Shown here: positions 9,554-56,894 of the stretch, one piece after another
Layout: every line of letters begins with the position of its first letter
How positions within the stretch are numbered: the stretch's first letter is position 1
From: Escherichia coli
GTDB lineage: Bacteria; Pseudomonadota; Gammaproteobacteria; Enterobacterales; Enterobacteriaceae
Assembly (NCBI RefSeq): GCF_003991155.1
Contig: NZ_CP031294.1
DNA: 64,000 nucleotides
Direction: 5' to 3' (one strand)
Notes under the pieces: model-generated
Seen by the model: the letters and a program-made list of their open reading frames with translations, nothing else
Told to the model about the DNA's origin: nothing
The model's database searches: none
Made by a program: the position numbers and the translations under genes

Positions 9554-12500
9554 TCACAGACGGCCAATTCTTACTCGTAGGACGTTGTTATCGTCATAAA
9601 CGTCAATCCGCTGACCATTTATAACCAATCTCCCATTGCCGCCGCTATTACCGTTGATCTCAAGCGTTCCATTTTTGCCGAACCGCCATCCAGATCTACC
9701 GCTAACAAAATTGGTAGATTGCAGATCGCCTACTTTTGCATTGGTGATTGTGCCATCCTTGATATACGCTCCATTCATATAGGCGATACTGTTTTCGATA
9801 ACAAATGGCGTTGTGATCTTCCCGTTAACAGAGTTGACCAAACCAAACCTGTCCGCCTGAACCAAAAACTGAGATAGCCCAGTGGTGTCAATACCAAGCG
9901 CAATACCGGCAACATACTTCTGCCCTCCGCTCGTTGAAGTCTCCATTTTCAACGTCCACGCGGTTGATACTTTTTTGTTGGTATCAGCAATAGCTGTTGC
10001 CTGCTGTTGAATTGTCGCGGTATTTCCATCCACCTCTGCTTTCAGAGTATCGATTCGCCCACTCAGAGCATTATCTGCCTGCGTTCTCGCTGTCGTTTCA
10101 GTTGTGACCGCCGCAGAAATGTTGGCTGCTGTTTGAGACTCTAAGTTTGTGATTTGAGTCGCCAATGCAGCATCTTGCTCTGTACGCGTTTTCGTTTCGG
10201 TTGCTACAGCCGCTTTAATATCCTCTTTGTATTGAGAGGTCAGCTTGGTGATCTGAGACGACAACGCCGAGTCAGCATCAGTTCGAGCCTGCGTTTCAAC
10301 TGCAACGGCCGCACTAATATCTTTCGCTGTCTGTGCTTTTAAACTTGAAACCTCTTTTGTTAAAGCGGTATCACCATCTGCACGAGCCGTTGTTTCTCTG
10401 GCAAGAGACGCCTCGAGATCATTAGCTTTTGCTGTAAGAGACGTAATCTGGGTAGACAATGCACTATCGGCATCAGTCCTTGCTTTTGTCTCTACAGCAA
10501 CCGCTGCGGCAATATCAGTTCCGGTTTGTGCTCGCAGGCTGTTAATTTCTCGTGAGAGCGCCTGGTCAGCACTTGCTCTGGCCTCCTGCTCCTGAGTGAT
10601 GGCCGCGGATATATCACCGTCAACCTTTGACTGAAGCTGGTTTATTTGTTTGGCTAACGCAGAGTCCCCGCTTGCTCGGGCCTCCTGCTCACTACGTATT
10701 GCAGCAGAAATATCATCATCAACCTTTGCCTGAAGTTGGGTGATCTGGCTTGCCAGAGCCGAATCTTCCGTTGCTCGGGCTTCTTGCTCTTCCTTAATAG
10801 CTGCGACGATATCGTTGCTTACTTTCGACTCAAGCTGAGTGATCTGTGTCGTCAGAGCTTCATCGGCAGATGTACGAGCCTCCTGCTCTGTACTAATCGC
10901 CGCGCTGATATCTCCTTCAAACTTAGATTGCAGCTGAGTGACACGCTTTGCCAACGCTTCATCGCCATCGGCACGAGCGGTGGACTCTTCCAGAATACTG
11001 GCCTTAATGTCTTCGCCAATTTCTACGCGAATTTCCTCAACCTTCGTGGCCATTGCAGACATATCATCAGCAAAGGTTTTCTGTGTTGTTGCGATCTTCG
11101 CGTTATTGACCATCTGCTTGTGCTGGTCTTCATCTTGACGAAGAGCCAGGTCAATATTTGTTTTGGCTAACGCCTCAATGTTCGTAGTCAGTTCTGCACT
11201 GGCACGATCGACCTCTGCAACCGTCTTTTTCATTTCTTCAACGGCAGCGGAGCTTTCCTCTACCGTTGACTGCAACACTTCCAGTTGTTTAGCGTTTGCA
11301 GCATCGCCTTCAACACGAGCCTCGCTTTCCTTAGCAATAAGAGCCGCCGCTTCATCTCTTGCAGCCTTTATTGCCTCGACTGTATTAGCGAGAGCTTTAT
11401 CGTGTTCAGATACGGTGTTTTCGATTTCAACAATTGCAGCATCAGTAGCATCAATTTTTTCAAACGCTTCATTGACCTTGTCGATCGTTGCCGAAACCTC
11501 ACCTTTAAGCTCGGTTTGTGCGTTCTCCAAAGCATCGCTACGCTCGTTGAATTTTATTTCAAAATCCGCGAGGTTATCGCTGAACTGCTTATCTAATTCA
11601 GCTATATCTTCCTTAACGTCGTTTACCGCCCCCTCCAAAGATTCGACGCTCTGGTTGATATGCTCATTTAACTCGTCAACTGCTTCTTGAGAGGCTTTGC
11701 TGTTGATGTCCTCAAGCAGAGCCTGACCAAGCTCGGAAGATGTAATTTTGCCAGTCAGGAACGACAGTACATCGCGAGTTGTCGCCTCTGTACCCAAGTT
11801 TGAGTTCGGAGGACTTAACATACCTCGCTTGTTCGATGCTCGAACCCAGTAATACCACGTTTCGCTATCCCCAAGACCAGCATGTGTAAAGGTGGTGCTT
11901 GCAGACTCTGCGATCAGTTTCGCCGTATCCAGATTGTTGGTCTGGGATGCGTAAACATTAATGTGATCAAGGTCTACCGAATCTGGATTAACCCAATTCA
12001 GTATCACATTACGATAGTCTCCAACGGCCGTTAATGACGTTGGGGCATCCGGCGGTGTCATTGTGCCCAACACCTGATAAACGGTACTGATAATCTCTGT
12101 TTTTTTACCGTTGAATGAAACCGCATACAGCTGGAAGTCGTAGCGTCCATTCTCCGCGACATTAACGATTTCGTATTGCTCTTCGGTTACACGCGCCGAT
12201 TGCCAGTTCGATACATTGTTTTCATCAGAACGTCGCCAACTGATCCAATACTCTGGAGATTTCCCTTCCCATGTTGCAGTCAGTTTTACTGACAGGTTGC
12301 CCGGGCTTGAGAGATAAGTCCCTTCAGTGATTTGCAGATTAGATGGCTTGGAGTAAGTTGGGTCCAATACCGTCGTATTCTGCGGGATCAGCGTTGCACC
12401 ATTGTCGATTGCCTCATATTTAGACGGATTGTTCTCAACAGCGGTGATGTCAAAGCTACCCGGCGTTTCCCCTTGCGCGATGTTAACGATGCGAACGCGC

Positions 12501-14287
12501 ATAGGTTCGAGGTCTGGTTCTGTAATAGTCCAGACGCCGTTCAAAACAGGCGTTTCAGCCGAAGACAGGGCTTTTGAAAACGTAACTTTTGTTATATTTT
12601 CGCCAGTTTCAAGAACATCGCGTTCAACGATTTTGCCTTCCTGATTCAGTATTCGAATAAAGCAGCCGCCTTTGGCTAACGACACAGGCGCATCGAGTGT
12701 GACGCTGTTTTTGGTAAACGCCACAATTCGACCTGAGTTACGTTTGCCTGCGCGATATTTGTTCTGAATCAGAACGGTTTCACCAGGCATCAGAAATGAC
12801 GCGTCTAAGCCGGCAGTAAATGTAATTACATCCGACTCCATTCTGGCGGTATATAAAAGCCACAAACCAACTCGGTGAGCCTGCCCTCGGCTTGTACAGC
12901 CAAATGCTACGACTTCTGTTTTACGCTCACCATAACGGCGCATTGCGTCCTGATCTTCGACGTACTCGATGTTTTGCTTATAACCGTCCTCCTTGTTGTT
13001 GTAGGTTACGAGCGCAACGGATGGGCGATCTTTACGCGCAGAACCTTTATAGGTAAACAATCCATCTTTGACGTTAGAGTTGGTAAACATCATTACCGGA
13101 TCTGATGGGCTATCCTGCATGATGTTAACCATCCCACCAGCCCAAAACACCATGCCGCGGAATGCTCCGGCAATATCCTGAATTAGCCGGTATGCGTCCT
13201 GTCGACTGGTGATCTGCGTATTGATTGCAAAGCGTTTCTCTTTGCCACCAAAGCCATCATCGACCTCTTCGTCACAATATCGACCAATCTGGTACAACTG
13301 GCCAAGGTCAATCATAGATTCCGACACATACTGACCAAGGCCATATCGAGCATTGGTCAGCAAATCAAAGAGAATCCACGCGGGGTTCGAAGAAGACAAC
13401 AGCTTAAAAGTGCCATCCCATACCCCAGCGTAAGTGTTACTGGACTCGTTATAGTTTGAAGGTACTCGAATTTTTAGGCCACGCACCAGATAAGAGCGAG
13501 ATGGCATGGTGCTGCCGAATTGCTCAGAGTTTACCTTCAATCCAACCAAAACAGAGTTTGGATAGTTCATCGGTGTATCGACAATTTCCCCGATTGAATC
13601 CACCCATGTATCGTTATAGAGATACTGGCTACTGTTATCATCGGTAATACGGACCACACGAACCTTGTATGCTCGTCCAGGCTTAGGCAGCTTCAGCTCA
13701 TAGCTACGGTAATAAACGCCGGTCTTCTTTGCTGTTAGCTTAATGCCAACGCTTTTTTCACCTTCAGCGACCACATCTACAAATGTTGAGTCGCCATTTG
13801 CTATCTGGAACTTGTACTCAACAGTCGTACCGTTCGTGTCACCAGTTTTTTTATCTATGCTTCGCAAAGAAGGAAACTTCATGATGACACGAACCCGATC
13901 AGCTTCATCGTTATCGATTGAAACCGTTACATAATGTGTTTTTTTTAACTGGATATTGACGGATTTAGGCGTTTCAACGAAATCAAAGCCAGACATTGGA
14001 GTCTGGTCTTGTGAACCGTCGCGAAAATCCCATGTGATTCCGCTGAAGTTGGAGGAACCGTCTTCATTTACAATCGGCAGATCGTCGATAAAAATAGATC
14101 TTGCGCCATTTACTAAGCCGCCAATTACCCCTTCCCCAAGAAGATCGAGGATAGCGGCCATTGCACGAGAATTTACGGTATCGTCGGCTTCAACCGGTGT
14201 ACGGCTGGAGCTTTTGCTGCTTTTTTTACCACCCGCACCGGCAATAAACAGCGGTAGCTTTTTCTTCTTGAACTGTTCCATGTTCAA
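9554..14287 (-). CDS. central tail fibre / host specificity protein (lambda J-like N-terminal two-thirds, fibronectin-III region, then a long tandem coiled-coil repeat array and a distinct C-terminal domain)
   Basis: The 1577-aa product starts MNMEQFKKKKLPLFIAGAGGKKSSKSSSRTPVEADDTVNSRAMAAILDLLGEGVIGGL, like J. The gene sits directly downstream of the I/K/L/M-like genes. At least ten about 28-aa repeats of the form DISAAI-x-QEARA-x-D-x-AL-x-QITQLQ-x-KV follow. Confidence 0.85.
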   Translation of the reverse strand: MNMEQFKKKKLPLFIAGAGGKKSSKSSSRTPVEADDTVNSRAMAAILDLLGEGVIGGLVNGARSIFIDDLPIVNEDGSSNFSGITWDFRDGSQDQTPMSGFDFVETPKSVNIQLKKTHYVTVSIDNDEADRVRVIMKFPSLRSIDKKTGDTNGTTVEYKFQIANGDSTFVDVVAEGEKSVGIKLTAKKTGVYYRSYELKLPKPGRAYKVRVVRITDDNSSQYLYNDTWVDSIGEIVDTPMNYPNSVLVGLKVNSEQFGSTMPSRSYLVRGLKIRVPSNYNESSNTYAGVWDGTFKLLSSSNPAWILFDLLTNARYGLGQYVSESMIDLGQLYQIGRYCDEEVDDGFGGKEKRFAINTQITSRQDAYRLIQDIAGAFRGMVFWAGGMVNIMQDSPSDPVMMFTNSNVKDGLFTYKGSARKDRPSVALVTYNNKEDGYKQNIEYVEDQDAMRRYGERKTEVVAFGCTSRGQAHRVGLWLLYTARMESDVITFTAGLDASFLMPGETVLIQNKYRAGKRNSGRIVAFTKNSVTLDAPVSLAKGGCFIRILNQEGKIVERDVLETGENITKVTFSKALSSAETPVLNGVWTITEPDLEPMRVRIVNIAQGETPGSFDITAVENNPSKYEAIDNGATLIPQNTTVLDPTYSKPSNLQITEGTYLSSPGNLSVKLTATWEGKSPEYWISWRRSDENNVSNWQSARVTEEQYEIVNVAENGRYDFQLYAVSFNGKKTEIISTVYQVLGTMTPPDAPTSLTAVGDYRNVILNWVNPDSVDLDHINVYASQTNNLDTAKLIAESASTTFTHAGLGDSETWYYWVRASNKRGMLSPPNSNLGTEATTRDVLSFLTGKITSSELGQALLEDINSKASQEAVDELNEHINQSVESLEGAVNDVKEDIAELDKQFSDNLADFEIKFNERSDALENAQTELKGEVSATIDKVNEAFEKIDATDAAIVEIENTVSEHDKALANTVEAIKAARDEAAALIAKESEARVEGDAANAKQLEVLQSTVEESSAAVEEMKKTVAEVDRASAELTTNIEALAKTNIDLALRQDEDQHKQMVNNAKIATTQKTFADDMSAMATKVEEIRVEIGEDIKASILEESTARADGDEALAKRVTQLQSKFEGDISAAISTEQEARTSADEALTTQITQLESKVSNDIVAAIKEEQEARATEDSALASQITQLQAKVDDDISAAIRSEQEARASGDSALAKQINQLQSKVDGDISAAITQEQEARASADQALSREINSLRAQTGTDIAAAVAVETKARTDADSALSTQITSLTAKANDLEASLARETTARADGDTALTKEVSSLKAQTAKDISAAVAVETQARTDADSALSSQITKLTSQYKEDIKAAVATETKTRTEQDAALATQITNLESQTAANISAAVTTETTARTQADNALSGRIDTLKAEVDGNTATIQQQATAIADTNKKVSTAWTLKMETSTSGGQKYVAGIALGIDTTGLSQFLVQADRFGLVNSVNGKITTPFVIENSIAYMNGAYIKDGTITNAKVGDLQSTNFVSGRSGWRFGKNGTLEINGNSGGNGRLVINGQRIDVYDDNNVLRVRIGRL

Positions 14288-14298
14288 AAAATCCTTGT

Positions 14299-14892
14299 TT
14301 ACATTAGCTGGTCAATCGTGATTGAAGAACTCACAACCTGTGAGCCAACCAGAATTTCCTCGCCATAGATAAGTTGTACTGGGTTGCCCTGGTTTTCTGT
14401 ATTTTGAGGGCCGTCGAAATAATAAGAGTTCGAGTTATCTGCCTGTCTCACACTTTCGTTAGTGGCTTGCGGCGATATGATTTGTGATATGCCGCCCATC
14501 ATCAGTGACAAACCGAGAGGTGCTAAAGCAGGCATCACTACCGCCGATACAACCAACAAAGCGGCCCCTACTACCGTCTGAAACCACCCAAAAGCAGATC
14601 CACCGCTTCCTCGCGGAACAGGTGTAATGCGGATTTTGGCAATGTTGTCAGACTGCCCCATCATCTGATATTCACTTTCGTCAACAGACCACTTGTGGCC
14701 CTGTTTATTGGTGATCTGGATGTGGTAACGGTCATAGGTTTTGATATTGCGCTTCATCCATGCTTTAAACCCAGGCTTGTTGGCCTCAATTAAATCCAGA
14801 GCCTGTTTTGTATTGCGCACCTTTAGATGCCAGTGGCGGCCAAAATGTTTGGCCATAGGGCCGCCAAGCTGCACATGAACTAACTCAGACAC
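14299..14892 (-). CDS. tail assembly protein I-like
   Basis: Synteny between K and J. The C-terminus is hydrophobic and Gly-rich (GSGGSAFGWFQTVVGAALLVVSAVVMPALAPLGLSLMMGG) as in lambda I. Confidence 0.65.
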   Translation of the reverse strand: MSELVHVQLGGPMAKHFGRHWHLKVRNTKQALDLIEANKPGFKAWMKRNIKTYDRYHIQITNKQGHKWSVDESEYQMMGQSDNIAKIRITPVPRGSGGSAFGWFQTVVGAALLVVSAVVMPALAPLGLSLMMGGISQIISPQATNESVRQADNSNSYYFDGPQNTENQGNPVQLIYGEEILVGSQVVSSSITIDQLM

Positions 14893-15704
14893 GTCTCATC
14901 TCCCTTGAGCAAGTCTCTGTGACGCAAGTGATGCGTCGTATGTTTCTGATACATTCCGCCGTAATAAGCACGACAACTAAGACGGTCGATCTGGTGATGA
15001 AGAATCATTCCATCGCCGATATAAACCGCGCAGTGATCTGGCATTTTCCCGTATTGAATAAAGAAGACGTCCCCACGTTGAGGCTCTGTTCCAGGTGCAA
15101 GCCGTACCAATCCCTCGTTTCGGTAGTTCTGGTCGAGAATGTCGTTATCGCCGGTGTACCACGATGGAATATGCAGGTGTGCGTTCGGGTTAAGCTCGAC
15201 GTTAAACTCACGCTTCAAATAGTCCCGACACAACATCCAGCAATCGAATACGCCAAATACATACGGTCTACCCAGGTATGGCATTTCGAAACCATCAGGT
15301 GTGATCACATTCATCTCGCTAAAATGGAAAGGGGCATCTCCCTCAACATTCTTGCGAATAGCCAGAATCATCCACGGAACTTCCGTCGCTTCACAGCCTG
15401 CACGATCGGCATCAGATGCTTCTGCTGATTCATCAGTATGTGAATGCCAGATTGCGATTACGTCACCTGCATCCTCTGCCGCCATAATGTCGTCAACGTG
15501 CATTACAAAAGTGTTCTGCGGGTTCTCCGAAACATTTCGCGCTTCCATAAAGCGATATTTGTCGCCATTAGTTCTCACCAGAAAGCCACACGCTTCATTA
15601 GGGTAGCGATTTATGGCGCAGAGATAGATTTGCTGCATAACATCAGAGCCAAGCTCAGGGATTGCTTTATTACCCATATCGCGTAGCTCCAATAAACCCG
15701 CCAA
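14880..15704 (-). CDS. tail assembly protein K-like (MPN/JAMM plus NlpC/P60-like). The true start is probably internal.
   Basis: Carries the JAMM-like HSHTDESAEASDAD motif and a Cys/His region (FDCWMLCRDY...H). It lies between the L-like and I-like genes. The N-terminal 35 nt overlap the upstream gene. Confidence 0.7.
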   Translation of the reverse strand: MAGLLELRDMGNKAIPELGSDVMQQIYLCAINRYPNEACGFLVRTNGDKYRFMEARNVSENPQNTFVMHVDDIMAAEDAGDVIAIWHSHTDESAEASDADRAGCEATEVPWMILAIRKNVEGDAPFHFSEMNVITPDGFEMPYLGRPYVFGVFDCWMLCRDYLKREFNVELNPNAHLHIPSWYTGDNDILDQNYRNEGLVRLAPGTEPQRGDVFFIQYGKMPDHCAVYIGDGMILHHQIDRLSCRAYYGGMYQKHTTHHLRHRDLLKGDETCLS

Positions 15705-36843: not shown

Positions 36844-37122
36844 ATGAGTGAAAAGAAAACAACTTACTGTCAGGTAGCATTGTCTGATAAGGCCAATGAC
36901 AAACTTGGAAAGTTTCAAGTGAAACTAAAAGAAAAAAATATCAAAATGTCTAAGGCTGAAGTCATAAATACCATTCTGGAACAATTGACAATGGCCGACT
37001 TTGACAAGGTTATATCTTCTGTCGGGGCTTCCGCTAAGACTCGTGAGAAAATCATGCGTATCTATGAGAACTCTAATATGACAAAGGAAGATCTCAAAAC
37101 GCTATTAAGCAGATTAAAATAA
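36844..37122 (+). CDS. hypothetical small protein (92 aa)
   Basis: Start overlaps the helicase stop. Confidence 0.35.
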   Translation: MSEKKTTYCQVALSDKANDKLGKFQVKLKEKNIKMSKAEVINTILEQLTMADFDKVISSVGASAKTREKIMRIYENSNMTKEDLKTLLSRLK

Positions 37123-37190
37123 TCACGCTATCAATTAGGGAGACAAAGATGAAGTCTCCCATACTGTTCACTTTCTGTTCTAAAACTATC

Positions 37191-37613
37191 ATGAAATACT
37201 CGCTTCTCCCTCTACTAACGTTACCAGTGTTGATGCTTGCCGCGTGCCAATCACACCCAATATCAATCCATGACGCCAAACCAGCACCGCAGGCCAAAGT
37301 GTTCAAGTATCAAAGCGCAGCGCCAGCTACGTTGGTGGTAATGAGAGACACAGGTTTTGTAGGAGCTGGATGTGATGCTTCCATTTTCATCAACGGCGAA
37401 ACTGTCGCAAAACTGGCTACAGGCGAAAAAGCGACTTTCCATTTAAATGCCGGAGAATTAATTGTGGGTGCATCTCTTGAAGGTGCAGGTTTATGTGCTC
37501 TAAACCCCGCTCGTCAAGAGCGAGAAACGACTCTGAAGAATGGAGACACAAAAGCGTTCAGGGTGTTTACCAGCAATTCTGGTGACATCGACATTCTGCC
37601 AACAACTCTGTGA
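37191..37613 (+). CDS. lipoprotein (signal peptide with lipobox LAAC)
   Basis: MKYSLLPLLTLPVLMLAACQSHP... The start is moved to the internal ATG, which gives a canonical lipoprotein signal sequence. Confidence 0.55.
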   Translation: MKYSLLPLLTLPVLMLAACQSHPISIHDAKPAPQAKVFKYQSAAPATLVVMRDTGFVGAGCDASIFINGETVAKLATGEKATFHLNAGELIVGASLEGAGLCALNPARQERETTLKNGDTKAFRVFTSNSGDIDILPTTL

Positions 37614-37615
37614 TG

Positions 37616-38142
37616 ACATGACAACCAAAGATATTACCTACGGTATCCAAGCTGAACTCTGGCCGCGAGATTACACTAACGTTGAAAAACTACTGATGTT
37701 CTGGCGCAGAGAACAAATTCCTGTAAGGGTCACTCTCGAAGATGGCCAGGCGTTTTGCATGTACGTTTATGGCCTCATGCCATCTCGTAACAAAGTTGAC
37801 CTTTGCCCAGCCCCTTTTGACAAAGAAAATCGTATAAGGCTCCCACTTGAACGCATTAGTACAATTGAATCAGGTGTGGTTGACAGTATCGCTCACGATT
37901 TCAAAGGTCGACTAACAGTTCACCCTGATTATGTCGATAATCGGCCATCACGCCGCGATTTTTTTGCAATTTGCAACCAAGCCTACAAAGCAAACAAATC
38001 TATAAGGGTGTACATGGCGGATGGCCGTGAAATTGAGGGGGTGTCAGCAGGCGCAGATGCTTGTCAGGTTACACTACGTGTCGAGAACGGTAGAAAAATA
38101 GTTGTTTTGTTCGATTGGGTTGAACGAATTTTGCCTTTTTGA
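37616..38142 (+). CDS. hypothetical protein (about 175 aa)
   Basis: The ORF begins MTTKDITYGIQAELWPRDY... The start is chosen at the first ATG after the lipoprotein stop. Confidence 0.4.
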
Positions 38143-38145
38143 GTT

Positions 38146-38454
38146 ATGAAATCGATATTGTTACCACCATTATTTTTACTTTGCTCAGTTGCGGCAAATG
38201 CAATGGACTATAAGCCTGTCATTCAGTCGCTGATGAATGACGTGTGCTCAACGTCTCAGAATGTATCAGTTTGCATGTATCAATTTTCGGCAGCCGTAAA
38301 AGCAGGAAAAGCGATAGGCGAGAATGTGGAACTGTGTAAGAAAGTGGCAAATGAAGAACGGGCAATGTTGGATTGCGAATCTAGCGAGTCATCGGCACAG
38401 TTCGTTGATGCGCTATTTGACACCAATCGTAAGGCTGTAGAGTCTGTTCAATAA
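38146..38454 (+). CDS. small secreted Cys-containing protein (signal peptide)
   Basis: MKSILLPPLFLLCSVAANA followed by a hydrophilic domain with four Cys. The start is 4 nt after the preceding stop. Confidence 0.5.
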   Translation: MKSILLPPLFLLCSVAANAMDYKPVIQSLMNDVCSTSQNVSVCMYQFSAAVKAGKAIGENVELCKKVANEERAMLDCESSESSAQFVDALFDTNRKAVESVQ

Positions 38455-41540: not shown

Positions 41541-41636
41541 AAGGCATAAAAGAAGTTAATACAGGCTGAATACACAAGAAAGGTTCTGGAAGTTGATAGC
41601 CAGGTTTCAAACTAACCTTCGGTTATTAAAAGTCAT

Positions 41637-41664
41637 TTAAGACCACCAATGCTGGTGGCCTTAA
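41637..41664. terminator. hairpin TTAAGACCACCAATGCTGGTGGCCTTAA (copy 2)
   Basis: See the copy at 41166. Both are preceded by GTCATTTAA. Confidence 0.5.
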
Positions 41665-41813
41665 TAATTATCGCCCGATTACGCTAAGGATCTTTTCCTC
41701 AACTGATTTGTTGTTGCGACTAAACTGCCTTGCGTATCTGATGACAGAAGAGGCGTTTTGCTTTCTGACCATCTCGGCTCTTTCCTTCAGGCGTTTCTTG
41801 AAATCGCCCATAT

Positions 41814-42188
41814 TTACCACCAGGCGCAGAAGGTCAGTCTGTTATTGTGAAAGTCGTGGTTCTTAATCAGATCTTCCACAAGCTCTTTCAACTCCCCCAC
41901 ATCATGCCAGTAACCTTCATCGTACTCCTGACTGCCGAAGAAAAAACCTTCCCGGGTAGGCAAGTACTCTTCGCAATTACTTTCGTTTATGTGCATCAAA
42001 TGAGCCTTCAGAAAACAAATGTCATTCATCGTTAATTCTAAAAGCTCACAATTTTCGACTTCACCTACGTTGCGCTCCATCCACCCAACGAGCGCATTGA
42101 ACTTACGGAAGTAAGCAACCTGCTTTCTGGATGCCTCGTTATTCAGATCGTTTTTAGGCTGTGTCTCGATATAGATATCAAGTCCCAT
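41814..42188 (-). CDS. hypothetical acidic protein (about 124 aa)
   Basis: The start is reassigned to MGLDIYIETQ..., preceded by AAGGAAACC. An operator-like AAACAAATTGTTAT lies at 42247. Confidence 0.45.
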   Translation of the reverse strand: MGLDIYIETQPKNDLNNEASRKQVAYFRKFNALVGWMERNVGEVENCELLELTMNDICFLKAHLMHINESNCEEYLPTREGFFFGSQEYDEGYWHDVGELKELVEDLIKNHDFHNNRLTFCAWW

Positions 42189-42305
42189 GATGGTTTCCTT
42201 ATTAAGTTGCTTCAGTGAAATCATTTTCACAAATCAGATAAGGCAGAAAACAAATTGTTATCGGGCATAAGAAAATGGCGCGGTTTACGCGCCATTCAAA
42301 GAGGA

Positions 42306-45170: not shown

Positions 45171-45176
45171 AATGTT

Positions 45177-45911
45177 TTACTTAGTTTTGTTTAGCAGAGA
45201 GAGAATTTCATCACTAATTTCACTCGCCTGTTTGATAGCCAATGCAGTTACCTCTTCTATGGTTGGTGACTGTTGATGCTCATATTTGGTTTCGGTTATG
45301 ACAATGTGTTCTTCACCAGAATTTGCGCATAGTGCCGCATTGACGATAAGGTTTGAGTAAGAATTTAGCAGAGCACTGTTGATGAACGCTTTCACGGTAT
45401 TACTGTCTGCACCAAATACATCTTTTCTGACCGCTTCAGCCTCACAGCGAACCCCTGCAGCAACATCGTGAAGAACATGTATGGCCTTGGAGCTTGTTTG
45501 TTCACAGTACTCAATCATTATTGTCGAATTGTTCTGTTCAACAAACGATCTGATGCCTGACGATTTACCCATAGCATCGAAGGCAGCGTGACCCGCACTA
45601 GTAGAGATATCTTCATAGAGTTCTTCATCGCTATCTTTTTCTTCAGGTGTCGAGGTGTCTTCATCGTCGTAATAGATATTGCCTTTAATCAGTGTCTTGG
45701 ACACTTGATATAAACAATAAGAAACGAGATTTAAGCATTGGATTTTAGCTGTATTGTCCTTTGTCGCCTCGCTATTCAGTTCTTTCGCTTCTTCAGTAAG
45801 GCTGTTGATAAGACTTTGTATTTTTTCCAACGCGTTAGGTGCACACTCCGCGTTGTCCATAAAGAATTTATAACCAGTCCCAGGGATTTCTAAACTTTTC
45901 AACTTTTTCAT
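45177..45911 (-). CDS. hypothetical acidic protein (244 aa)
   Basis: Good ORF. The Asp/Glu-rich central segment reads DDEDTSTPEEKDSDEELYEDIS. Confidence 0.5.
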   Translation of the reverse strand: MKKLKSLEIPGTGYKFFMDNAECAPNALEKIQSLINSLTEEAKELNSEATKDNTAKIQCLNLVSYCLYQVSKTLIKGNIYYDDEDTSTPEEKDSDEELYEDISTSAGHAAFDAMGKSSGIRSFVEQNNSTIMIEYCEQTSSKAIHVLHDVAAGVRCEAEAVRKDVFGADSNTVKAFINSALLNSYSNLIVNAALCANSGEEHIVITETKYEHQQSPTIEEVTALAIKQASEISDEILSLLNKTK

Positions 45912-45956
45912 TTCTTTGATAATCCTAAAAACAAACTACCAATGCTTTAATATCTG

Positions 45957-46256
45957 TTACCAGTTCCAGCACTCAAGCCCTTCAACGACCGGCGCACCAC
46001 AATCAAAATGTACAGAGTCAAAGCCTACATCAAGTACTTTCTGAATGTTAGCAATCGCGCCTTCGGATATACCATATCGACGCAAGTCCTCTTTCCAGAC
46101 ATCATCCTGTAACCCAGCGTGGACAATACAACCGCCGTCAATTTGTGAAACCCAATCCAGCTCATTGCTTGCGATCATGAATCGGCGAGCATCTTCCTCT
46201 GATGTATGAGATGAGCTGATCAATGCCACCTGGTAGGCTTGGGTAATGTTCAACAT
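45957..46256 (-). CDS. small acidic protein (99 aa)
   Basis: Two operator palindromes lie immediately upstream. Confidence 0.45.
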   Translation of the reverse strand: MLNITQAYQVALISSSHTSEEDARRFMIASNELDWVSQIDGGCIVHAGLQDDVWKEDLRRYGISEGAIANIQKVLDVGFDSVHFDCGAPVVEGLECWNW

Positions 46257-46417: not shown

Positions 46418-48451
46418 TTACTTAACCTGGTGGCCTGGTTTAGCACCAGCATCCGGGCTTAACAGGAAGATATCTTTCCCGCCGGGGCCAGCAGCCATCA
46501 CCATGCCTTCGGAGATACCGAAGCGCATTTTACGCGGAGCCAGGTTAGCCACCATAATGGTGTGACGACCAATCAGTGCCTGTGGGTCTGGATAAGCAGA
46601 ACGGATGCCTGAGAAGACATTACGCTTTTCACCACCGAGATCCAGTGTCAGACGCAGCAGTTTGTCAGAACCTTCGACAAACTCCGCGTTTTCAATCAGC
46701 GCCACACGCAGGTCAACTTTGGCGAAGTCGTCAAAGGTGATGGTTTCCTGAATCGGGTCGTCAGCCAGTGGGCCAGTTACCGGTGCAGCTGTGGCTTTCA
46801 CTTCTTCTTTGGATGCTTCCACCAGTGCTTCCACCTGTTTCATATCGATACGGTTATACAATGCCTTGAACGGATTCACTTTATGGCCCAGCAGCGGTTG
46901 CTGGATACCATCCCAGGTCAGTTCTGTATTCAGGAATGCTTCTGCACGTTCAGTCAGTTTCGGCAGTACCGGTTTCAAGTACGTCATCAGCACGCGGAAC
47001 AGGTTAATGCCCATAGAGCAAATCGCCTGCAGATCGGCATCGCGTCCTTCCTGCTTCGCCACCACCCACGGAGCCTGTTCATCGACATATCGGTTAGCCA
47101 GGTCAGCCAATGCCATGATTTCACGGATAGCTTTACCAAATTCGCGGCTTTCCCATGCTTCGCCAATCACTTCAGCGGCATCAGTAAAGGTTTTGTACAG
47201 TTGCGGGTCAGCCAGTTCGCTTGCCAGCACGCCGTCAAAACGCTTGTTGATAAAGCCTGCATTACGGGAGGCCAGGTTAACCACTTTGTTCACGATATCG
47301 GCATTCACGCGCTGAACGAAATCCTCCAGGTTGAGATCGATATCATCAATGCGCGAAGAGAGTTTCGCAGTGTAGTAGTAACGCAGGCTGTCGGCGTCAA
47401 AATGATTCAGCCAGGTGCTGGCTTTAATAAAGGTGCCGCGAGACTTGGACATCTTCGCGCCGTTCACCGTCACATAGCCGTGAACAAACAGGTTGGTCGG
47501 CTTGCGGAAGTTGCTGCCTTCCAGCATGGCAGGCCAGAACAGGCTGTGGAAGTAAACAATATCTTTACCGATGAAGTGGTACAGCTCGGCTGTGGAGTCT
47601 TTCTTCCAGTATTCATCGAAGCTGGTGGTATCGCCGCGCTTGTCGCACAGATTCTTGAAGGAACCCATGTAGCCAATCGGCGCGTCCAGCCAGACGTAGA
47701 AATATTTGCCCGGCGCGTTCGGAATTTCAAAACCGAAGTAAGGCGCATCGCGGGAGATATCCCACTGTTGCAGGCCGGATTCAAACCACTCCTGCATTTT
47801 GTTCGCCACCTGCTCCTGCAACGCACCGCTGCGGGTCCATGCCTGCAACATTTCGCTGAAAGAGGGCAGATCAAAGAAGAAGTGTTCGGAATCACGCATT
47901 ACCGGGGTAGCGCCAGAAACCACCGATTTCGGCTCGATCAATTCAGTCGGGCTATATGTTGCGCCGCAGACTTCACAGTTATCGCCGTATTGATCTGGCG
48001 CTTTACATTTCGGGCAGGTGCCTTTCACAAAACGATCCGGCAGGAACATGCCTTTTTCCGGGTCGTACAACTGAGAGATAGTGCGGTTTTTAATAAAACC
48101 GTTCTCTTTCAGGCGAGTATAGATAAGCTCAGACAGCTGGCGGTTCTCTTCGCTGTGCGTCGAGTGATAGTTGTCATAGCTGATGTTAAAGCCTGCGAAA
48201 TCAGTCTGGTGTTCCTGACTCATTTCGCCAATCATCTGCTCCGGTGTGATACCAAGCTGCTGTGCTTTCAGCATGATCGGCGTACCGTGGGCATCGTCGG
48301 CACAGATGAAATTAACCTCGTGGCCGCGCATTCGCTGGTAACGAACCCAGACATCAGCCTGGATGTGCTCCAGCATATGGCCGAGGTGGATTGAGCCGTT
48401 AGCGTACGGCAGCGCGCACGTCACCAGAATTTTCTTCGCGACTTGGGTCAT
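46418..48451 (-). CDS. metG: methionyl-tRNA synthetase
   Basis: Translation from [35 protein letters not shown]... carries the class I HIGH motif and KMSKS (…GAKMSKSRG…). The full-length product is 677 aa with a C-terminal tRNA-binding domain. A terminator hairpin follows the stop. Confidence 0.95.
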
Positions 48452-48608
48452 AGTAGGCATTACTTCTTTGTAGTGAAAAGGGGCTTGATAGTAACAAAAT
48501 GGCCTTATGTCTGCCATGTGATAACAGCATTTCTCATAAATGATTAAATGTCGTAGCTGGAGTACACTACAAGGCGACAATTGCGCAAATTAAAATAAAG
48601 GAGACGGG

Positions 48609-49709
48609 ATGAGCGAGTCCAAATCGCCGGATGCCCTGAGAGCAATGGTAGCCGGTACGCTGGCTAATTTTCAGCACCCAACCCTGAAACACAACCTGAC
48701 TACGCTTAAAGCGTTACACCATGTTGCGTTGATGGATGACACACTGCATGTCGAACTAATCATGCCTTTCGTGTGGAATAAGCCTTTTGAAGACCTGAAA
48801 GAGCAATGTAGTGGTGATCTGCTCCGTATCACTGGCGCAAAGGCTATTGACTGGAAGCTGTCGTACAACATTGCCACGCTTAAGCGCGTCAAAAACCAAC
48901 CAGGCATTAATGGCGTTAAGAACATTATCGCCGTCAGCTCAGGCAAGGGCGGCGTGGGTAAATCCTCCACGGCGGTAAACCTGGCACTGGCGTTGGCTGC
49001 TGAAGGTGCGAAAGTTGGTATTTTGGATGCCGATATCTATGGTCCATCAATTCCAACCATGCTGGGCGCGGAAAACCAACGTCCAACCTCACCTGACGGT
49101 ACTCACATGGCACCTATCATGTCTCATGGCCTGGCAACCAACTCTATTGGTTATCTGGTCACCGACGACAATGCAATGGTGTGGCGTGGACCGATGGCCA
49201 GCAAGGCGCTGATGCAGATGTTGCAGGAAACTCTATGGCCTGATCTGGACTATCTCGTTCTCGATATGCCGCCGGGCACTGGTGATATTCAGTTGACGCT
49301 GGCGCAGAACATTCCTGTAACTGGTGCGGTTGTGGTAACTACGCCGCAAGACATCGCGCTGATCGATGCGAAGAAAGGCATTGTGATGTTCGAAAAAGTC
49401 GAAGTGCCGGTACTGGGTATCGTCGAAAACATGAGTGTGCATATTTGCAGTAACTGCGGTCATCACGAGCCAATTTTTGGCACCGGTGGCGCACAGAAAC
49501 TGGCCGAGAAATACAACACGCAGTTGTTAGGCCAAATGCCACTTCATATCTCTCTTCGTGAAGATCTGGATAACGGAACACCAACCGTTATTAGTCGTCC
49601 AGATAGCGAATTTACGGCTATTTATCGTGACCTCGCAGATCGCGTTGCCGCCCAAATGTATTGGCAAGGTGAAGTAATACCTGGCGAAATCGCATTCCGC
49701 GCAGTGTGA
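48609..49709 (+). CDS. mrp: Mrp/ApbC Fe-S cluster carrier ATPase
   Basis: MSESKSPDALRAM... The P-loop reads VSSGKGGVGKSSTAVNLA. The CxxC pair reads CSNCGHHEP. Divergent from metG with a 157-bp intergenic region. A terminator hairpin follows. Confidence 0.93.
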   Translation: MSESKSPDALRAMVAGTLANFQHPTLKHNLTTLKALHHVALMDDTLHVELIMPFVWNKPFEDLKEQCSGDLLRITGAKAIDWKLSYNIATLKRVKNQPGINGVKNIIAVSSGKGGVGKSSTAVNLALALAAEGAKVGILDADIYGPSIPTMLGAENQRPTSPDGTHMAPIMSHGLATNSIGYLVTDDNAMVWRGPMASKALMQMLQETLWPDLDYLVLDMPPGTGDIQLTLAQNIPVTGAVVVTTPQDIALIDAKKGIVMFEKVEVPVLGIVENMSVHICSNCGHHEPIFGTGGAQKLAEKYNTQLLGQMPLHISLREDLDNGTPTVISRPDSEFTAIYRDLADRVAAQMYWQGEVIPGEIAFRAV

Positions 49710-49745
49710 TAAAAGGCGGTGCATTGCACCGCCTAATCAGTTCTC

Positions 49746-50135
49746 CTACATCACGGGACAATCATCAAACTCGCCACTTCTTGCGTCGTTGATAATGTGA
49801 GTGATCACACCAAACACGGCATTGCTGCCCGTGCATCCATCGTCATCCTTTGGCAATGCTTCCTTCTTACCGGTTCTTAAATCCTCCAGATGCTGACGTG
49901 GGTACTTCCGGTATCTTTTTACGCGATATTCCCCATCCAGAGCGCATACAAGCAGAGAACCATCAACCGGGGTAAGTGAGGAATCGACCACCAGCAATGC
50001 ACCCTGTAATATTCCCTCACGATGATGACTATCAGCTGCCCTCATGAAGTAGGTCGCTGAAGGATGTCTAATTATCTGCTGATCAAGAGAAATACGGCTC
50101 TCAGCATAATCCGCCGCAGGAGAAGGGAAGCCCAT
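49746..50135 (-). CDS. UmuD/LexA-like S24 peptidase-domain protein (orphan, no umuC partner in the window)
   Basis: The 129-aa product has a C-terminal S24-like domain ...DGSLLVCALDGEYRVKRYRKYP.... A LexA box lies 19 bp upstream. Confidence 0.65.
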   Translation of the reverse strand: MGFPSPAADYAESRISLDQQIIRHPSATYFMRAADSHHREGILQGALLVVDSSLTPVDGSLLVCALDGEYRVKRYRKYPRQHLEDLRTGKKEALPKDDDGCTGSNAVFGVITHIINDARSGEFDDCPVM

Positions 50136-50153
50136 AGCGTTTTCACCTCAGAG

Positions 50154-50173
50154 TACTGTTTATCCATACAGTA
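50154..50173. promoter_or_regulatory. LexA (SOS) box TACTGTTTATCCATACAGTA
   Basis: Perfect CTGT-N8-ACAG with TA flanks, read directly at 50154-50173. Confidence 0.8.
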
Positions 50174-50233
50174 TACATTAAAGATGCTTGAAGTGTGCAA
50201 TAGCGCGATGCTTTGCGCTCGTCTGGTGGCGCG

Positions 50234-50485
50234 TTATTTTTTGGCTATATCTTCTTTCTGATATACCGGATCGTTTCCTTTTGGCAGCAGGAGGCTTAAC
50301 TGCCGGTAGTGCCGTAGCCGTTCCATGAAATAGGTGCGCAGGTTCTCAGGTTGCTCACGGGCTACCTGTTCCGCTATGACGGGTATGTTCAATCGCTCTT
50401 TGTAGGCAACCCCCCTGGCAGCCAGGTCAACGTTAACTTTATTCCTTTCTTCCTGGCTTTTGGCTGCTATGTTCCAGTTGCTCAT
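50234..50485 (-). CDS. hypothetical protein (83 aa)
   Basis: ORF adjacent to the next small ORF. No motif. Confidence 0.4.
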
Positions 50486-50487
50486 GT

Positions 50488-50676
50488 TTAAGGCTCACAT
50501 TTCCAGATGGTATTCTGAACACCCGTACCAGGCGCAAGATGAGGGTTAGCGTTCGCGCTATGCAGATATACAGCTTTAGACTTTCCGTATTGCTGACAGG
50601 CTTTATCTGCGTTTTTTGGCAGGCTATCCAAGCCAATACCAGCCATCGAACTGGATGCTAACCTTTTCACCGTCAT
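50488..50676 (-). CDS. hypothetical small protein (about 62 aa)
   Basis: Weak. Start chosen at MTVKRL. Confidence 0.25.
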
Positions 50677-50837
50677 TGTATTGCACCATCGCACACCCAG
50701 ACATAGCTAAAATCGCACCGACAATACCGCTTTTCCAAAAAGCTCTAATTAGGTCATTCGTTACCTAATGTCCGAACTGCTAAAGCATCCAAGTTGCTGT
50801 AGAATCACATCCAATTACTTAAACCTGAAATAAGTGG

Positions 50838-52396
50838 ATGAAAATGACAAGTATTCAACAACGTGCAGAGCTTCATCGCCAGATCTGGCAAATTGCTAAC
50901 GATGTCAGGGGTTCAGTCGATGGATGGGATTTTAAGCAGTACGTTTTGGGCGCGCTTTTTTACCGTTTTATCAGCGAAAATTTTTCCAGTTATATTGAAG
51001 CCGGTGATGACAGTATCTGTTATGCGAAACTGGATGACAGCGTAATTACTGATGACATTAAAGACGATGCCATCAAAACTAAAGGCTACTTCATCTACCC
51101 CAGTCAGCTTTTCTGCAACGTAGCTGCGAAAGCAAATACTAATGACAGACTGAATGCAGATTTAAACAGCATCTTCGTTGCTATCGAAAGTTCTGCTTAC
51201 GGTTATCCTTCAGAAGCTGACATCAAAGGTTTGTTTGCTGATTTCGATACCACCAGTAACCGCCTGGGTAACACCGTTAAAGATAAAAATGCCCGCTTGG
51301 CTGCGGTTCTGAAAGGGGTTGAAGGGCTAAAACTTGGTGACTTCCATGAACATCAGATTGACCTGTTCGGTGACGCCTATGAGTTCCTGATTTCTAACTA
51401 TGCGGCGAATGCCGGTAAGTCCGGCGGCGAGTTCTTTACACCGCAGCACGTCTCTAAGCTGATTGCACAACTGGCTATGCACGGGCAGACCCACGTTAAC
51501 AAAATCTACGACCCGGCAGCAGGCTCCGGTTCGCTGTTGTTGCAGGCGAAAAAACAGTTTGATGACCATATCATCGAAGAAGGTTTTTTTGGTCAGGAAA
51601 TCAACCATACGACCTATAACCTGGCGCGTATGAACATGTTTTTGCACAACATCAACTACGACAAGTTTGATATCAAGCTGGGTAATACACTGACTGAGCC
51701 GCACTTCAGAGATGAAAAACCGTTTGATGCCATCGTTTCTAACCCGCCGTATTCGGTGAAATGGATTGGCAGCGATGACCCGACGCTGATTAACGATGAA
51801 CGTTTTGCCCCGGCTGGCGTTCTGGCCCCCAAATCCAAAGCTGACTTTGCGTTTGTATTACATGCGCTGAACTATCTTTCGGCCAAAGGTCGCGCTGCGA
51901 TTGTCTGCTTCCCAGGCATTTTTTACCGTGGCGGCGCGGAGCAGAAAATCCGTCAGTATCTGGTCGACAATAACTATGTCGAAACCGTGATTTCACTGGC
52001 ACCGAATCTGTTCTTTGGCACCACTATTGCCGTCAATATTCTGGTGCTGTCTAAACATAAAACGGATACCAAAGTTCAGTTTATTGATGCCAGCGAACTG
52101 TTCAAAAAAGAGACTAACAACAACATTCTGACCGATGCTCATATCGAACAGATTATGCAGGTATTTGCCAGCAAGGAAGATGTTGCTCATCTGGCGAAAT
52201 CTGTTGCGTTTGAGACTGTTGTCGCGAATGACTATAACCTGTCGGTGAGCAGCTATGTGGAAGCGAAAGATACTCGCGAAATTATCGATATCGCTGAGCT
52301 GAATGCTGAGCTGAAAACCACGGTCAGCAAAATCGACCAGTTGCGTAAAGATATTGATGCGATTGTTGCTGAGATTGAAGGTAGCGAGGTACAGGC

Positions 52397-52400
<4 letters not shown>
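50838..52400 (+). CDS. hsdM: type I restriction-modification methyltransferase subunit HsdM (type IC, EcoR124-family)
   Basis: [25 protein letters not shown]... An AdoMet-binding region and a catalytic SNPPYSVKW (NPPY) motif are present. The stop overlaps the hsdS start. Confidence 0.9.
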
Positions 52401-53656
<1,256 letters not shown>

Positions 53657-53777
53657 TTGACCATTGCTACCGACCGGATCACCTTAACATCCGGTCTATA
53701 TAGAGACTATTTTTTACACGCCGGAAGTCGCCCTTAAAGCCCTTCCGGCCCTTGCCAGACGGCACAAAGGATGCGCT

Positions 53778-56700
53778 ATGACTCATCAGACACACACCAT
53801 TGCTGAATCCAATAACTTTATCGTTCTTGATAAGTACATCAAAGCCGAGCAAACAGGCGACAGCTACCAGAGCGAATCGGACCTGGAACGTGAACTGATT
53901 CAGGATCTGCGGAATCAGGGCTATGAATTTATTTCCGTAAAATCTCAGTCGGCGATGCTGGCCAACGTTCGGGAACAGCTTCAGAGCCTCAATGGTGTGA
54001 TGTTTAATGACAGCGAGTGGCGGCGCTTCACGGAGCAGTATCTGGACAACCCCAGCGATGGTATTCTGGATAAAACCCGTAAAATCCATATCGACTATAT
54101 CTGCGACTTTATTTTTGACGACGGGCGACTTGAGAACATCTATTTGATAGATAAAAAGAATCTCATGCGCAATAAGGTGCAGATTATCCAGCAGTTTGAA
54201 CAGACGGGTTCTCATGCTAACCGTTATGACGTCACGATCCTGGTTAATGGTTTACCGCTGGTGCAAATCGAACTAAAAAAACGCGGGGTGGCGATTCGTG
54301 AGGCTTTCAACCAGATACATCGTTACAGTAAAGAGAGTTTTAACAGCGAAAATTCCCTGTTTAAGTATCTGCAACTGTTTGTCATTTCTAACGGCACCGA
54401 TACCCGTTATTTTGCCAACACGACAAAGCGCGATAAAAACAGTTTTGACTTCACCATGAATTGGGCGAAATCAGACAACACGCTGATTAAAGACCTCAAA
54501 GACTTTACCGCTACCTTTTTCCAGAAACATACTCTGCTGAATGTTCTGGTGAACTACAGCGTTTTTGACAGTAGTCAGACGCTACTGGTGATGCGACCGT
54601 ACCAGATTGCCGCCACCGAGCGCATTCTGTGGAAAATTAAGAGTTCCTTTACAGCGAAGAACTGGTCAAAACCGGAAAGCGGTGGGTATATCTGGCATAC
54701 TACCGGTTCTGGTAAAACCCTCACCAGCTTTAAAGCCGCGCGTCTGGCAACAGAGCTGGACTTTATTGATAAAGTCTTCTTTGTGGTCGACAGGAAAGAC
54801 CTCGATTACCAGACCATGAAGGAATATCAGCGTTTTTCGCCAGACAGCGTCAACGGCTCGGAAAATACCGCAGGCCTTAAACGAAATCTGGATAAGGACG
54901 ATAACAAAATTATCGTCACTACTATTCAGAAACTCAATAACCTGATGAAAGCAGAAAGCGACCTGCCTGTATATAATCAGCAAGTGGTGTTTATATTTGA
55001 TGAATGCCACCGCAGCCAGTTTGGAGAAGCGCAGAAAAACCTGAAGAAGAAATTCAAACGCTATTATCAGTTTGGTTTTACCGGCACCCCTATTTTCCCG
55101 GAAAACGCTTTAGGCTCAGAAACGACCGCCAGCGTATTTGGTCGTGAATTGCATTCGTATGTAATTACCGATGCGATTCGTGATGAAAAAGTGCTCAAAT
55201 TCAAGGTGGACTACAACGATGTGCGGCCACAGTTTAAATCTTTAGAGACAGAAACCGACGAGAAAAAACTGAGTGCGGCTGAAAATCAGCAGGCATTTCT
55301 TCATCCCATGCGTATACAGGAAATTACGCAATATATTCTGAATAACTTCCGCCAGAAGACCCACCGTACTTTCCCAGGTTCCAAAGGCTTTAATGCCATG
55401 CTGGCAGTGAGTAGCGTGGATGCCGCGAAAGCCTATTACGCGACGTTTAAACGGTTACAAGAGGAAGCAGCTAATAAATCGGCTACCTATAAACCGCTGC
55501 GTGTTGCAACAATCTTCTCCTTTGCCGCCAATGAAGAACAAAATGCCATTGGTGAAATTTCCGATGAAACTTTTGATACCAGCGCAATGGACAGCAGTGC
55601 TAAAGAGTTTCTTGACGCTGCAATTCGTGAGTATAACAGCTATTTTAAAACTAACTTCAGCACCGACAGTAACGGTTTTCAGAACTACTATCGTGATTTA
55701 GCCCAACGGGTTAAAAATCAGGATATCGATCTGTTAATTGTCGTTGGGATGTTTTTAACCGGCTTCGACGCTCCAACATTGAACACGCTATTCGTCGATA
55801 AAAACTTGCGTTTTCACGGCCTGATGCAGGCATTCTCCCGTACCAACCGCATTTATGACGCTACTAAAACCTTCGGTAACATCGTCACTTTTCGGGATCT
55901 GGAACGCTCAACCATTGATGCCATAACGCTGTTTGGTGATAAAAATACTAAAAATGTGGTGTTAGAAAAGAGTTATGCTGAGTATATGGAAGGCTTTACA
56001 GATGCTGCCACTGGTGAAGCTAAACGCGGCTTTATGGCAGTAGTTTCAGAACTGGAACAACGGTTCCCTGACCCTGCCAGTATTGAAAGTGAAAAACAGA
56101 AGAAAGACTTCGTAAAACTGTTTGGTGAATACCTGCGTGCCGAGAACATCCTGCAAAACTATGATGAATTTGCCACGCTGAAAGCCCTGCAACAAATCGA
56201 TCTTAGCGATCCTGTTGCGGTAGAAAAATTCAAAGCAGAACATTATGTGGATGATGAAAAGTTCGCTGAATTGCAAACAATTCGTCTCCCTGCTGAACGC
56301 AAGATTCAGGATTATCGTTCTGCCTATAACGATATTCGCGACTGGCAGCGCCGTGAGAAAGAAGCTGAGAAAAAAGAGAAATCAACCACTGACTGGGATG
56401 ACGTAGTTTTTGAGGTCGATTTGCTGAAGTCTCAGGAAATAAACCTGGATTATATCCTTGGACTGATTTTCGAACACAACAGACAAAATAAAGGCAAGGG
56501 CGAAATGATCGAAGAGGTCAAACGCTTAATTCGTTCAAGCCTGGGGAACCGGGCGAAAGAGGGCCTGGTGGTCGATTTTATTCAGCAAACGAACCTGGAT
56601 GATTTACCAGACAAAGCCAGTATCATTGAGGCATTCTTTACGTTTGCTCAACGCGAACAGCAACGTGAAGCAGAAGCATTGATAAAAGAAGAAAATCTCA

Positions 56701-56894
56701 ATGAAGAGGCGGCGAAACGCTATATTCGCACGTCTTTAAAACGCGAATACGCCACCGAAAATGGCACAGAATTAAACGAGACATTACCAAAACTTAGTCC
56801 GTTAAACCCGCAATATAAAACGAAAAAACAGACCGTTTTCCAGAAAATCGTCACGTTTATTGAAAAGTTCAAAGGAGTAGGTGGGCAGATATAG
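53778..56894 (+). CDS. hsdR: type I restriction enzyme endonuclease/translocase subunit HsdR
   Basis: The 1038-aa product has an SF2 helicase Walker A …TGSGKT…, a DEAH/DECH-like …[16 protein letters not shown]… and helicase C-terminal motifs. It lies 122 bp after hsdS. Confidence 0.9.

Follow-up and report, generated by a model that had tools for sequence, protein, structure and literature searches.

A P1-type humD gene with a conserved LexA operator on an SSU5-like phage-plasmid of Escherichia coli

The processed form of the Escherichia coli UmuD protein, UmuD', has Gly25 as its first residue, and arises through cleavage between Cys24 and Gly25. A phage version of this protein, HumD, is encoded by bacteriophage P1 (YP_006569.1). 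Its GenBank record carries the note 'functionally complements E. coli UmuD'', the title of the study by McLenigan et al. (1999, J Bacteriol 181:7005), as cited in PMC4713147 and PMC8460599, presents it as a functional UmuD' homologue that facilitates SOS mutagenesis, and humD has been described as a LexA-regulated SOS gene (PMC9603915). P1 is the reference carrier not only of humD but also of hot, whose product resembles the theta subunit (HolE) of DNA polymerase III (Pol III) and has been solved both alone and with epsilon186 (PDB 1SE7, 2IDO); HOT has been reported to be able to replace theta in the stabilisation of epsilon, and P1 itself is said to depend on host Pol III (PMC2528190). Orphan genes of the HumD type, likewise encoding proteins that are truncated from the outset, are also present in the linear phage-plasmids N15 (gp26) and phiKO2 (gp23), where the LexA box occupies the same position as in the locus described below and a terminator hairpin follows the gene.

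The locus analysed here lies within a stretch of 64,000 nucleotides of E. coli DNA (referred to as the window; contig NZ_CP031294.1 of assembly GCF_003991155.1). A first-pass annotation, made from the letters of the window, had noted a 129-residue protein with an S24-peptidase domain, and had suggested a stand-alone UmuD'-type gene carried by a mobile element, with P1 HumD as a precedent. The open reading frame is indeed present on the minus strand (49746..50135), starts with ATG and encodes 129 residues, within which the Peptidase_S24 domain (PF00717) scores 37.9 bits against a Pfam cutoff of 23.3. The precedent turns out to have been an understatement, as the protein is a HumD orthologue: the NCBIfam equivalog model for the HumD family (NF051876) covers all of it (residues 1-129 of 129, 219.8 bits, cutoff 120), and it is 91% identical to P1 HumD, with which it shares its length, its Met-Gly start and its C-terminal tail. 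Identity amounts to 93% with RCS47 HumD, 100% with a protein of the SSU5-like phage Cyrano and 44% with E. coli UmuD; N15 gp26, at 69% identity, differs from the window protein in carrying Thr at the nucleophile position. A longer HumD N-terminus is not possible, since the sequence holds an in-frame TGA five codons 5' of the ATG. The gene is already known, the exact protein being named in RefSeq (WP_000506720.1, 'HumD family translesion DNA polymerase', in records of E. coli plasmids that are 100% identical) and the element that carries it being annotated as well; the product name is a loose one, in that HumD is an accessory subunit and no polymerase. Judged by its sequence, the window gene is an ordinary copy of the known humD, that is, the phage version of a ready-made UmuD'.

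The anatomy of the protein is that of UmuD' and not of UmuD. HumD starts with Met-Gly-Phe-Pro-Ser-Pro, and in the alignment its Gly coincides with Gly25 of UmuD, whose processed form opens with GFPSPAADY. The first-pass annotation had proposed an alignment with UmuD and HumD as a way of looking for both a Ser/Lys dyad and a LexA-type cleavage site, and the two had different outcomes: Ser36 and Lys73 of HumD align with the UmuD dyad Ser60/Lys97, while the 24-residue N-terminal arm with its Cys/Ala-Gly self-cleavage site is absent, the protein beginning at the Gly of that very site, such that, unlike UmuD, HumD has no self-processing step. In keeping with UmuD it has the S24 fold (PDB 1UMU, 1AY9), an assignment that consists of a sequence match to UmuD' structures (E = 6.7e-23 for 1UMU); an AlphaFold2 run on a 102-sequence alignment of the HumD family gave an unusable model, with a mean pLDDT of 44. 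HumD also departs from UmuD in its additional 10-residue acidic C-terminal tail and in having no umuC in its operon. HumD moreover falls short of two NCBIfam models, with 87 bits for the autoproteolytic UmuD subfamily (cutoff 110) and only 27.2 bits for LexA (cutoff 110.95). An N-terminal DNA-binding domain of the kind present in LexA and in CI-type phage repressors was looked for in HumD and is absent.

A protein that lacks the arm and the cleavage site, and that has no umuC neighbour, could also be the product of decay, the reading frame being a functionless fragment of LexA or of a phage repressor, or the umuD that a umuDC operon left behind on losing umuC. The contrast between 27 bits for the LexA model and 220 for the HumD model speaks against such an origin, as do the presence of the dyad, which a repressor fragment of the type envisaged in the first-pass annotation would have lacked, and the conserved Shine-Dalgarno sequence and operator upstream. 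Comparison within the family points the same way. The sample consisted of the best 120 cluster representatives, from a search that gave 555 matches at E <= 1e-10; the exact Met-Gly start is common to 110 of these 120, and the full length, tail included, is 67-100% identical across five genera, Escherichia, Citrobacter, Klebsiella, Enterobacter and Salmonella. This family-wide conservation led to the rejection of both a umuDC remnant and a repressor fragment, and decay of the gene is scarcely credible as an explanation.

Directly upstream of humD lies a LexA operator, or SOS box (50154..50173), which reads TACTGTATGGATAAACAGTA on the coding strand and matches TACTG(TA)5CAGTA at 17 of 20 positions, with every mismatch in the central spacer. 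It is the only match without mismatches to TACTGT-N8-ACAGTA in the whole 64 kb, where about 0.004 would be expected by chance on arithmetic grounds; the looser core CTGT-N8-ACAG has two matches in the window, of which the humD box is one. The consensus-quality SOS box claimed at first pass is hence confirmed, the only correction being that the spacer between box and ATG, given as 19 bp, counts 18 nt. A Shine-Dalgarno sequence, GAGGTG (50144..50149, minus strand), can be read 8 nt 5' of the ATG and is identical in P1. A consensus scan further yielded a putative sigma-70-like promoter on the same strand (50170..50199), composed of a -35 element TGCACA, an 18-nt spacer and a -10 element TATACT (50175..50170); this candidate matches the consensus at 9 of 12 positions, and its -10 element overlaps the edge of the LexA box.

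The box aligns with the P1 feature annotated as protein_bind 'LexA binding site in the regulatory region of lxr and humD', which bears out the LexA control that had been proposed for this gene and that HumD has in common with E. coli UmuD. Furthermore, the element TACTGTAT-N6-ACAGT is invariant and equidistant from the ATG in all five upstream regions compared (window, P1, RCS47, Cyrano and N15), whereas the flanks diverge. A different arrangement is found in a chromosomal prophage of Citrobacter (CP186042.1). There, too, humD is an orphan; it sits at the end of a tail-fibre module, is preceded by an 80-aa gene that lacks annotation, and runs divergently from dinI. No perfect CTGT-N8-ACAG core occurs at this locus; the control region that the divergent dinI and humD share holds two imperfect LexA boxes, one with 1 mismatch and the other with 2. 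The maintenance of the operator in its position across lineages, together with the Citrobacter boxes, indicates that SOS control is a conserved property of the module.

In its layout, the locus resembles that of P1 by having hot upstream and no umuC, but in P1 the gene lxr, in opposite orientation, is inserted between hot and humD, and phd-doc lies downstream; in the window, hot abuts the humD promoter, and apbC (mrp) follows downstream in convergent orientation. Between apbC and humD there is a GC-rich hairpin (49714..49734) with a 9-bp stem and a 3-nt loop, whose fold energy on the minus strand is -21.4 kcal/mol (z = -4.1). It had initially been called the mrp terminator, but the UUUUAU that follows it is on the humD strand, and the hairpin lies beyond the homology to chromosomal mrp/apbC, which ends at approximately 49705; it is thus better read as belonging to humD, and is likely to be its intrinsic terminator.

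The orphan status of the gene holds well beyond its immediate surroundings. A tblastn search with E. coli UmuC found no homologue in the 64-kb window (best E = 0.27), no Y-family polymerase is annotated across the whole of the 98%-identical plasmid NZ_CP103659.1, and from the humD stop codon to the convergent apbC there are 36 bp with the hairpin only, and no umuC remnant. The view that no catalytic subunit of polymerase V follows the gene was therefore correct, and none is concealed just outside the annotated frames either. An adjacent umuC is also missing in P1, RCS47, N15, Cyrano and the Citrobacter prophages, and the lack of a umuC of its own is general across the HumD family. In the host, by contrast, umuC was found in 5422 of 5426 complete E. 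coli genomes, meaning that a partner is always available.

By analogy with P1, HumD would very probably be a UmuD' analogue that is made in processed form upon SOS induction and joins host UmuC in translesion synthesis of the Pol V type. In the undamaged cell, host LexA bound to the operator that overlaps the -10 element would repress humD; upon DNA damage, RecA*-mediated cleavage of LexA would lift this repression. HumD would then be made directly in the active UmuD' form, bypassing the slow RecA*-dependent self-cleavage that UmuD requires, and its dimer would associate with chromosomally encoded UmuC to yield a Pol V-like translesion polymerase. This polymerase would copy damaged templates, that of the phage-plasmid included, at the cost of mutagenesis, and the element would need no umuC because the host supplies it. 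The product of the upstream gene, the P1-type Hot, would as a theta homologue stabilise epsilon, the proofreading subunit of Pol III. The observations made here on which this scheme builds are the identity and anatomy of humD, the conservation of its operator, and the fact that umuC is missing from the element yet nearly universal in the host; the interaction with UmuC, the SOS induction and the effect on mutagenesis of this particular copy are added by extrapolation from P1 HumD and Hot (88-91% identity).

The same anatomy, a pre-processed form under LexA control, would equally suit a protein whose main task is to modulate the SOS response or its checkpoint. As long as UmuD is uncleaved, it acts with UmuC to hold back the resumption of replication, and heterodimers of UmuD and UmuD' are subject to degradation; a UmuD' form that appears early could, by binding to UmuC, to UmuD or to subunits of Pol III, cancel the UmuD2C-dependent delay, in which case the induced phage-plasmid would replicate at once and mutagenesis would be a side effect. 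The company kept by humD agrees with this idea, in that it is paired with modulators of the SOS response or of replication, namely hot in the window and in P1-like plasmids and dinI in Citrobacter prophages. Against it stands the fact that the P1 protein, going by the title cited in PMC4713147 and PMC8460599, has been characterised for its UmuD' complementation in mutagenesis. Such a role is, moreover, compatible with pairing of HumD with host UmuC and does not exclude it; as the principal function of HumD, it appears unlikely, though not strongly so.

The first-pass annotation had placed the gene at the edge of an island and beside mrp, a chromosomal setting that has to be replaced, given that the window comes from an SSU5/pHCM2-like phage-plasmid of E. 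coli, approximately 110 kb in size, and not from a chromosomal island. The E. coli plasmid NZ_CP103659.1 (109,579 bp) is collinear with the window at 93-99% identity, apart from several variable gaps such as 37095-38451, 41573-42235 and 45174-45956, and queries of 1141 bp and 3328 bp around humD matched many plasmids of 101-120 kb at 100% identity. Gene order in the window runs through tail, tape-measure, capsid, portal, terminase and ParB genes, followed by metG-apbC-humD-hot-hsdMSR. Plasmid NZ_CP103659.1 carries phage genes (tail, tape-measure, capsid, portal and terminase) and tRNAs, and encodes RepB and ParB, DnaE (11555-15073), a DnaB-like helicase, a primase, a ligase and a gp32-like SSB, NrdAB, ThyA and DfrA51, and a DnaQ-family exonuclease. 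The exonuclease, a DEDDh enzyme of 185 aa encoded at 95376-95933 of that plasmid, approximately 60 bp past the end of the window, is 83% identical to its counterpart in Salmonella phage SSU5, of which it is a core gene. The set of phage genes and the SSU5-like exonuclease together assign the element to the SSU5/pHCM2 type, a siphovirus-type phage-plasmid, as opposed to the P1-like carrier of the reference humD. Literature searches yielded no discussion of humD, umuD or theta in phage-plasmids of the SSU5/pHCM2 type. With the exonuclease, dnaE and hot, each of the three core subunits of Pol III has a homologue on a single phage-plasmid.

The phage-plasmid has its own pair of metG, the gene for methionyl-tRNA synthetase, and apbC (window 46418-49709), which is approximately 90% identical to the E. 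coli chromosomal pair, with homology stopping at the position given above, shortly before the apbC stop codon. This divergent pair was found on 221 E. coli plasmid records, and gives the impression of a housekeeping locus captured long ago. Just past metG there is also a gene for a 99-aa protein with a DUF5983 domain (45957-46256). Phage Cyrano has the same layout of apbC, hairpin and humD, but other genes upstream and neither hot nor hsd, from which it follows that humD is a backbone gene, while hot, a lipoprotein pseudogene and a type IC restriction-modification system are cargo. The earlier description of a gene beside a restriction-modification system at an island edge is therefore right as to the neighbour, the variable cargo being hot and an EcoR124-type system, and wrong as to the position of humD, which sits in the backbone next to apbC as in Cyrano. 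The humD coding sequence is 100% identical to that of Cyrano at the DNA level, whereas everything 5' of it, from the Shine-Dalgarno sequence through the operator and promoter to hot, departs from Cyrano and resembles P1 (84-92%), which points to a recombination junction at the humD ATG (50133-50136).

The restriction-modification system itself is a complete type IC system of the EcoR124 type (50844-56894). Its HsdR (1038 aa) is essentially identical to that of EcoR124I/II, and its HsdS (419 aa) has three central TAEL repeats and matches EcoR124II HsdS over residues 153-419 alone; the N-terminal target-recognition domain is unlike that of EcoR124II, and a different specificity is to be expected as a consequence.

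Two tiny reading frames between 50234 and 50676 had been assigned to the same operon as humD. One of them, 50234..50485 on the minus strand, is a real gene that had not been recognised as such: it encodes an 83-aa Pol III theta homologue of the P1 Hot type, matched over its entire length by PF06440 (DNA_pol3_theta, 107.9 bits, cutoff 34.6), 88% identical to P1 Hot and equal to it in length, and aligned over residues 1-83 with the solved HOT structures 1SE7 and 2IDO (E = 9e-45). The other, 50488-50694 (68 aa), is not a gene but the 3' part of a pseudogene remnant (50488..50747, minus strand) of a small lipoprotein gene of phrog_7757. It belongs to no family in the Pfam and NCBIfam profiles and has no phage tblastn match, the reason for the latter being its frameshift, as brought to light by a plasmid DNA search, a six-frame comparison and an alignment. 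The DNA alignment locates one extra T at 50635/50636, which shifts the frame by +1, and a break in lipoprotein homology at the start codon, the start and 5' end having been replaced in the window. In P1-like plasmids the block 50487-50747 is found directly 5' of hot, and it recurs at 73% identity in Klebsiella plasmids. Intact copies in P1-like plasmids and in a Klebsiella plasmid encode proteins of 86-88 aa with a signal peptide and a lipobox, and match phrog_7757 at E = 1.4e-53. Phage lipoproteins at such positions often function in superinfection exclusion. As for the shared operon, a consensus scan found no promoter for hot, and the stretch that separates hot from humD showed no terminator-like fold (z = 0.83); the lack of a stable structure there would permit read-through, and transcription may possibly run from hot into humD.

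The setting of hot in the window differs from that in P1 in two ways, the native upstream gene being decayed and the element encoding its own Pol III alpha subunit and DnaQ-like exonuclease, so that other partners for HumD and Hot than in P1 are conceivable. One could suppose that the two proteins serve the replisome of the element itself instead of host UmuC and epsilon, particularly as the element encodes, besides alpha, a DnaB-like helicase, a primase and a DEDDh exonuclease that is 29% identical to epsilon residues 11-176, a context unlike that of P1, which is said to use host Pol III (PMC2528190). This exonuclease is nevertheless devoid of the C-terminal segment by which epsilon binds alpha. 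In this lineage hot is an accessory gene, there being no hot-like DNA in Cyrano in spite of its identical humD and of the exonuclease being a core SSU5 gene, and at the DNA level hot and humD are still 84-92% identical to the P1-type copies, whose partners are host proteins. For these reasons it is decidedly improbable that the two proteins serve the replisome of the element in place of the host partners, and pairing with host UmuC is the reading retained here.

Two features of the HumD family are absent from its annotation and constitute minor new points. The first is the variability of the nucleophile column (Ser36, window 50028-50030), where 75 of the 120 representatives have Ser, 43 have Thr and 2 have Ala, while the Lys column (Lys73) is Lys in 117 of 120. 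This pattern suggests relaxed selection on the chemistry of self-cleavage, and fits with a HumD that no longer has to cut itself. The second is the conservation of the tail, SGEFDDCPVM (residues 120-129, window 49746-49775), which is missing in UmuD. Its motif EFDDCPV[M/I/L], EFDDCPVM in the window (residues 122-129), is kept at 92-100% per position from E122 to V128 among 103 representatives. The tail is similar to DFDDDIPF, the sequence in which E. coli SSB ends, a resemblance and no more. From its sequence, it could be a docking peptide that brings HumD-UmuC to SSB-binding replication and repair proteins, or a competitor of SSB at those proteins. A near-invariant tail with no counterpart in UmuD' implies that the role of HumD may extend beyond simple substitution for UmuD'; the fuller proposal, according to which HumD is more than a pre-cut UmuD, with the tail docking HumD-UmuC and with HumD and Hot tuning the element's own replisome, is improbable.

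Since humD, its LexA box and hot were described in P1 some 25 years ago, the locus has little discovery value as such. Its practical value is corrective, in that the window is to be read as a phage-plasmid and not as a chromosome with an island. For the biology of these elements, the comparison means that an SOS-controlled hot-humD module is common to unrelated phage-plasmid lineages, P1-like and SSU5-like, with a chimeric junction, N15-like elements having humD only, and that modulators of damage-inducible mutagenesis and of replication fidelity are carried by elements that also spread resistance genes.
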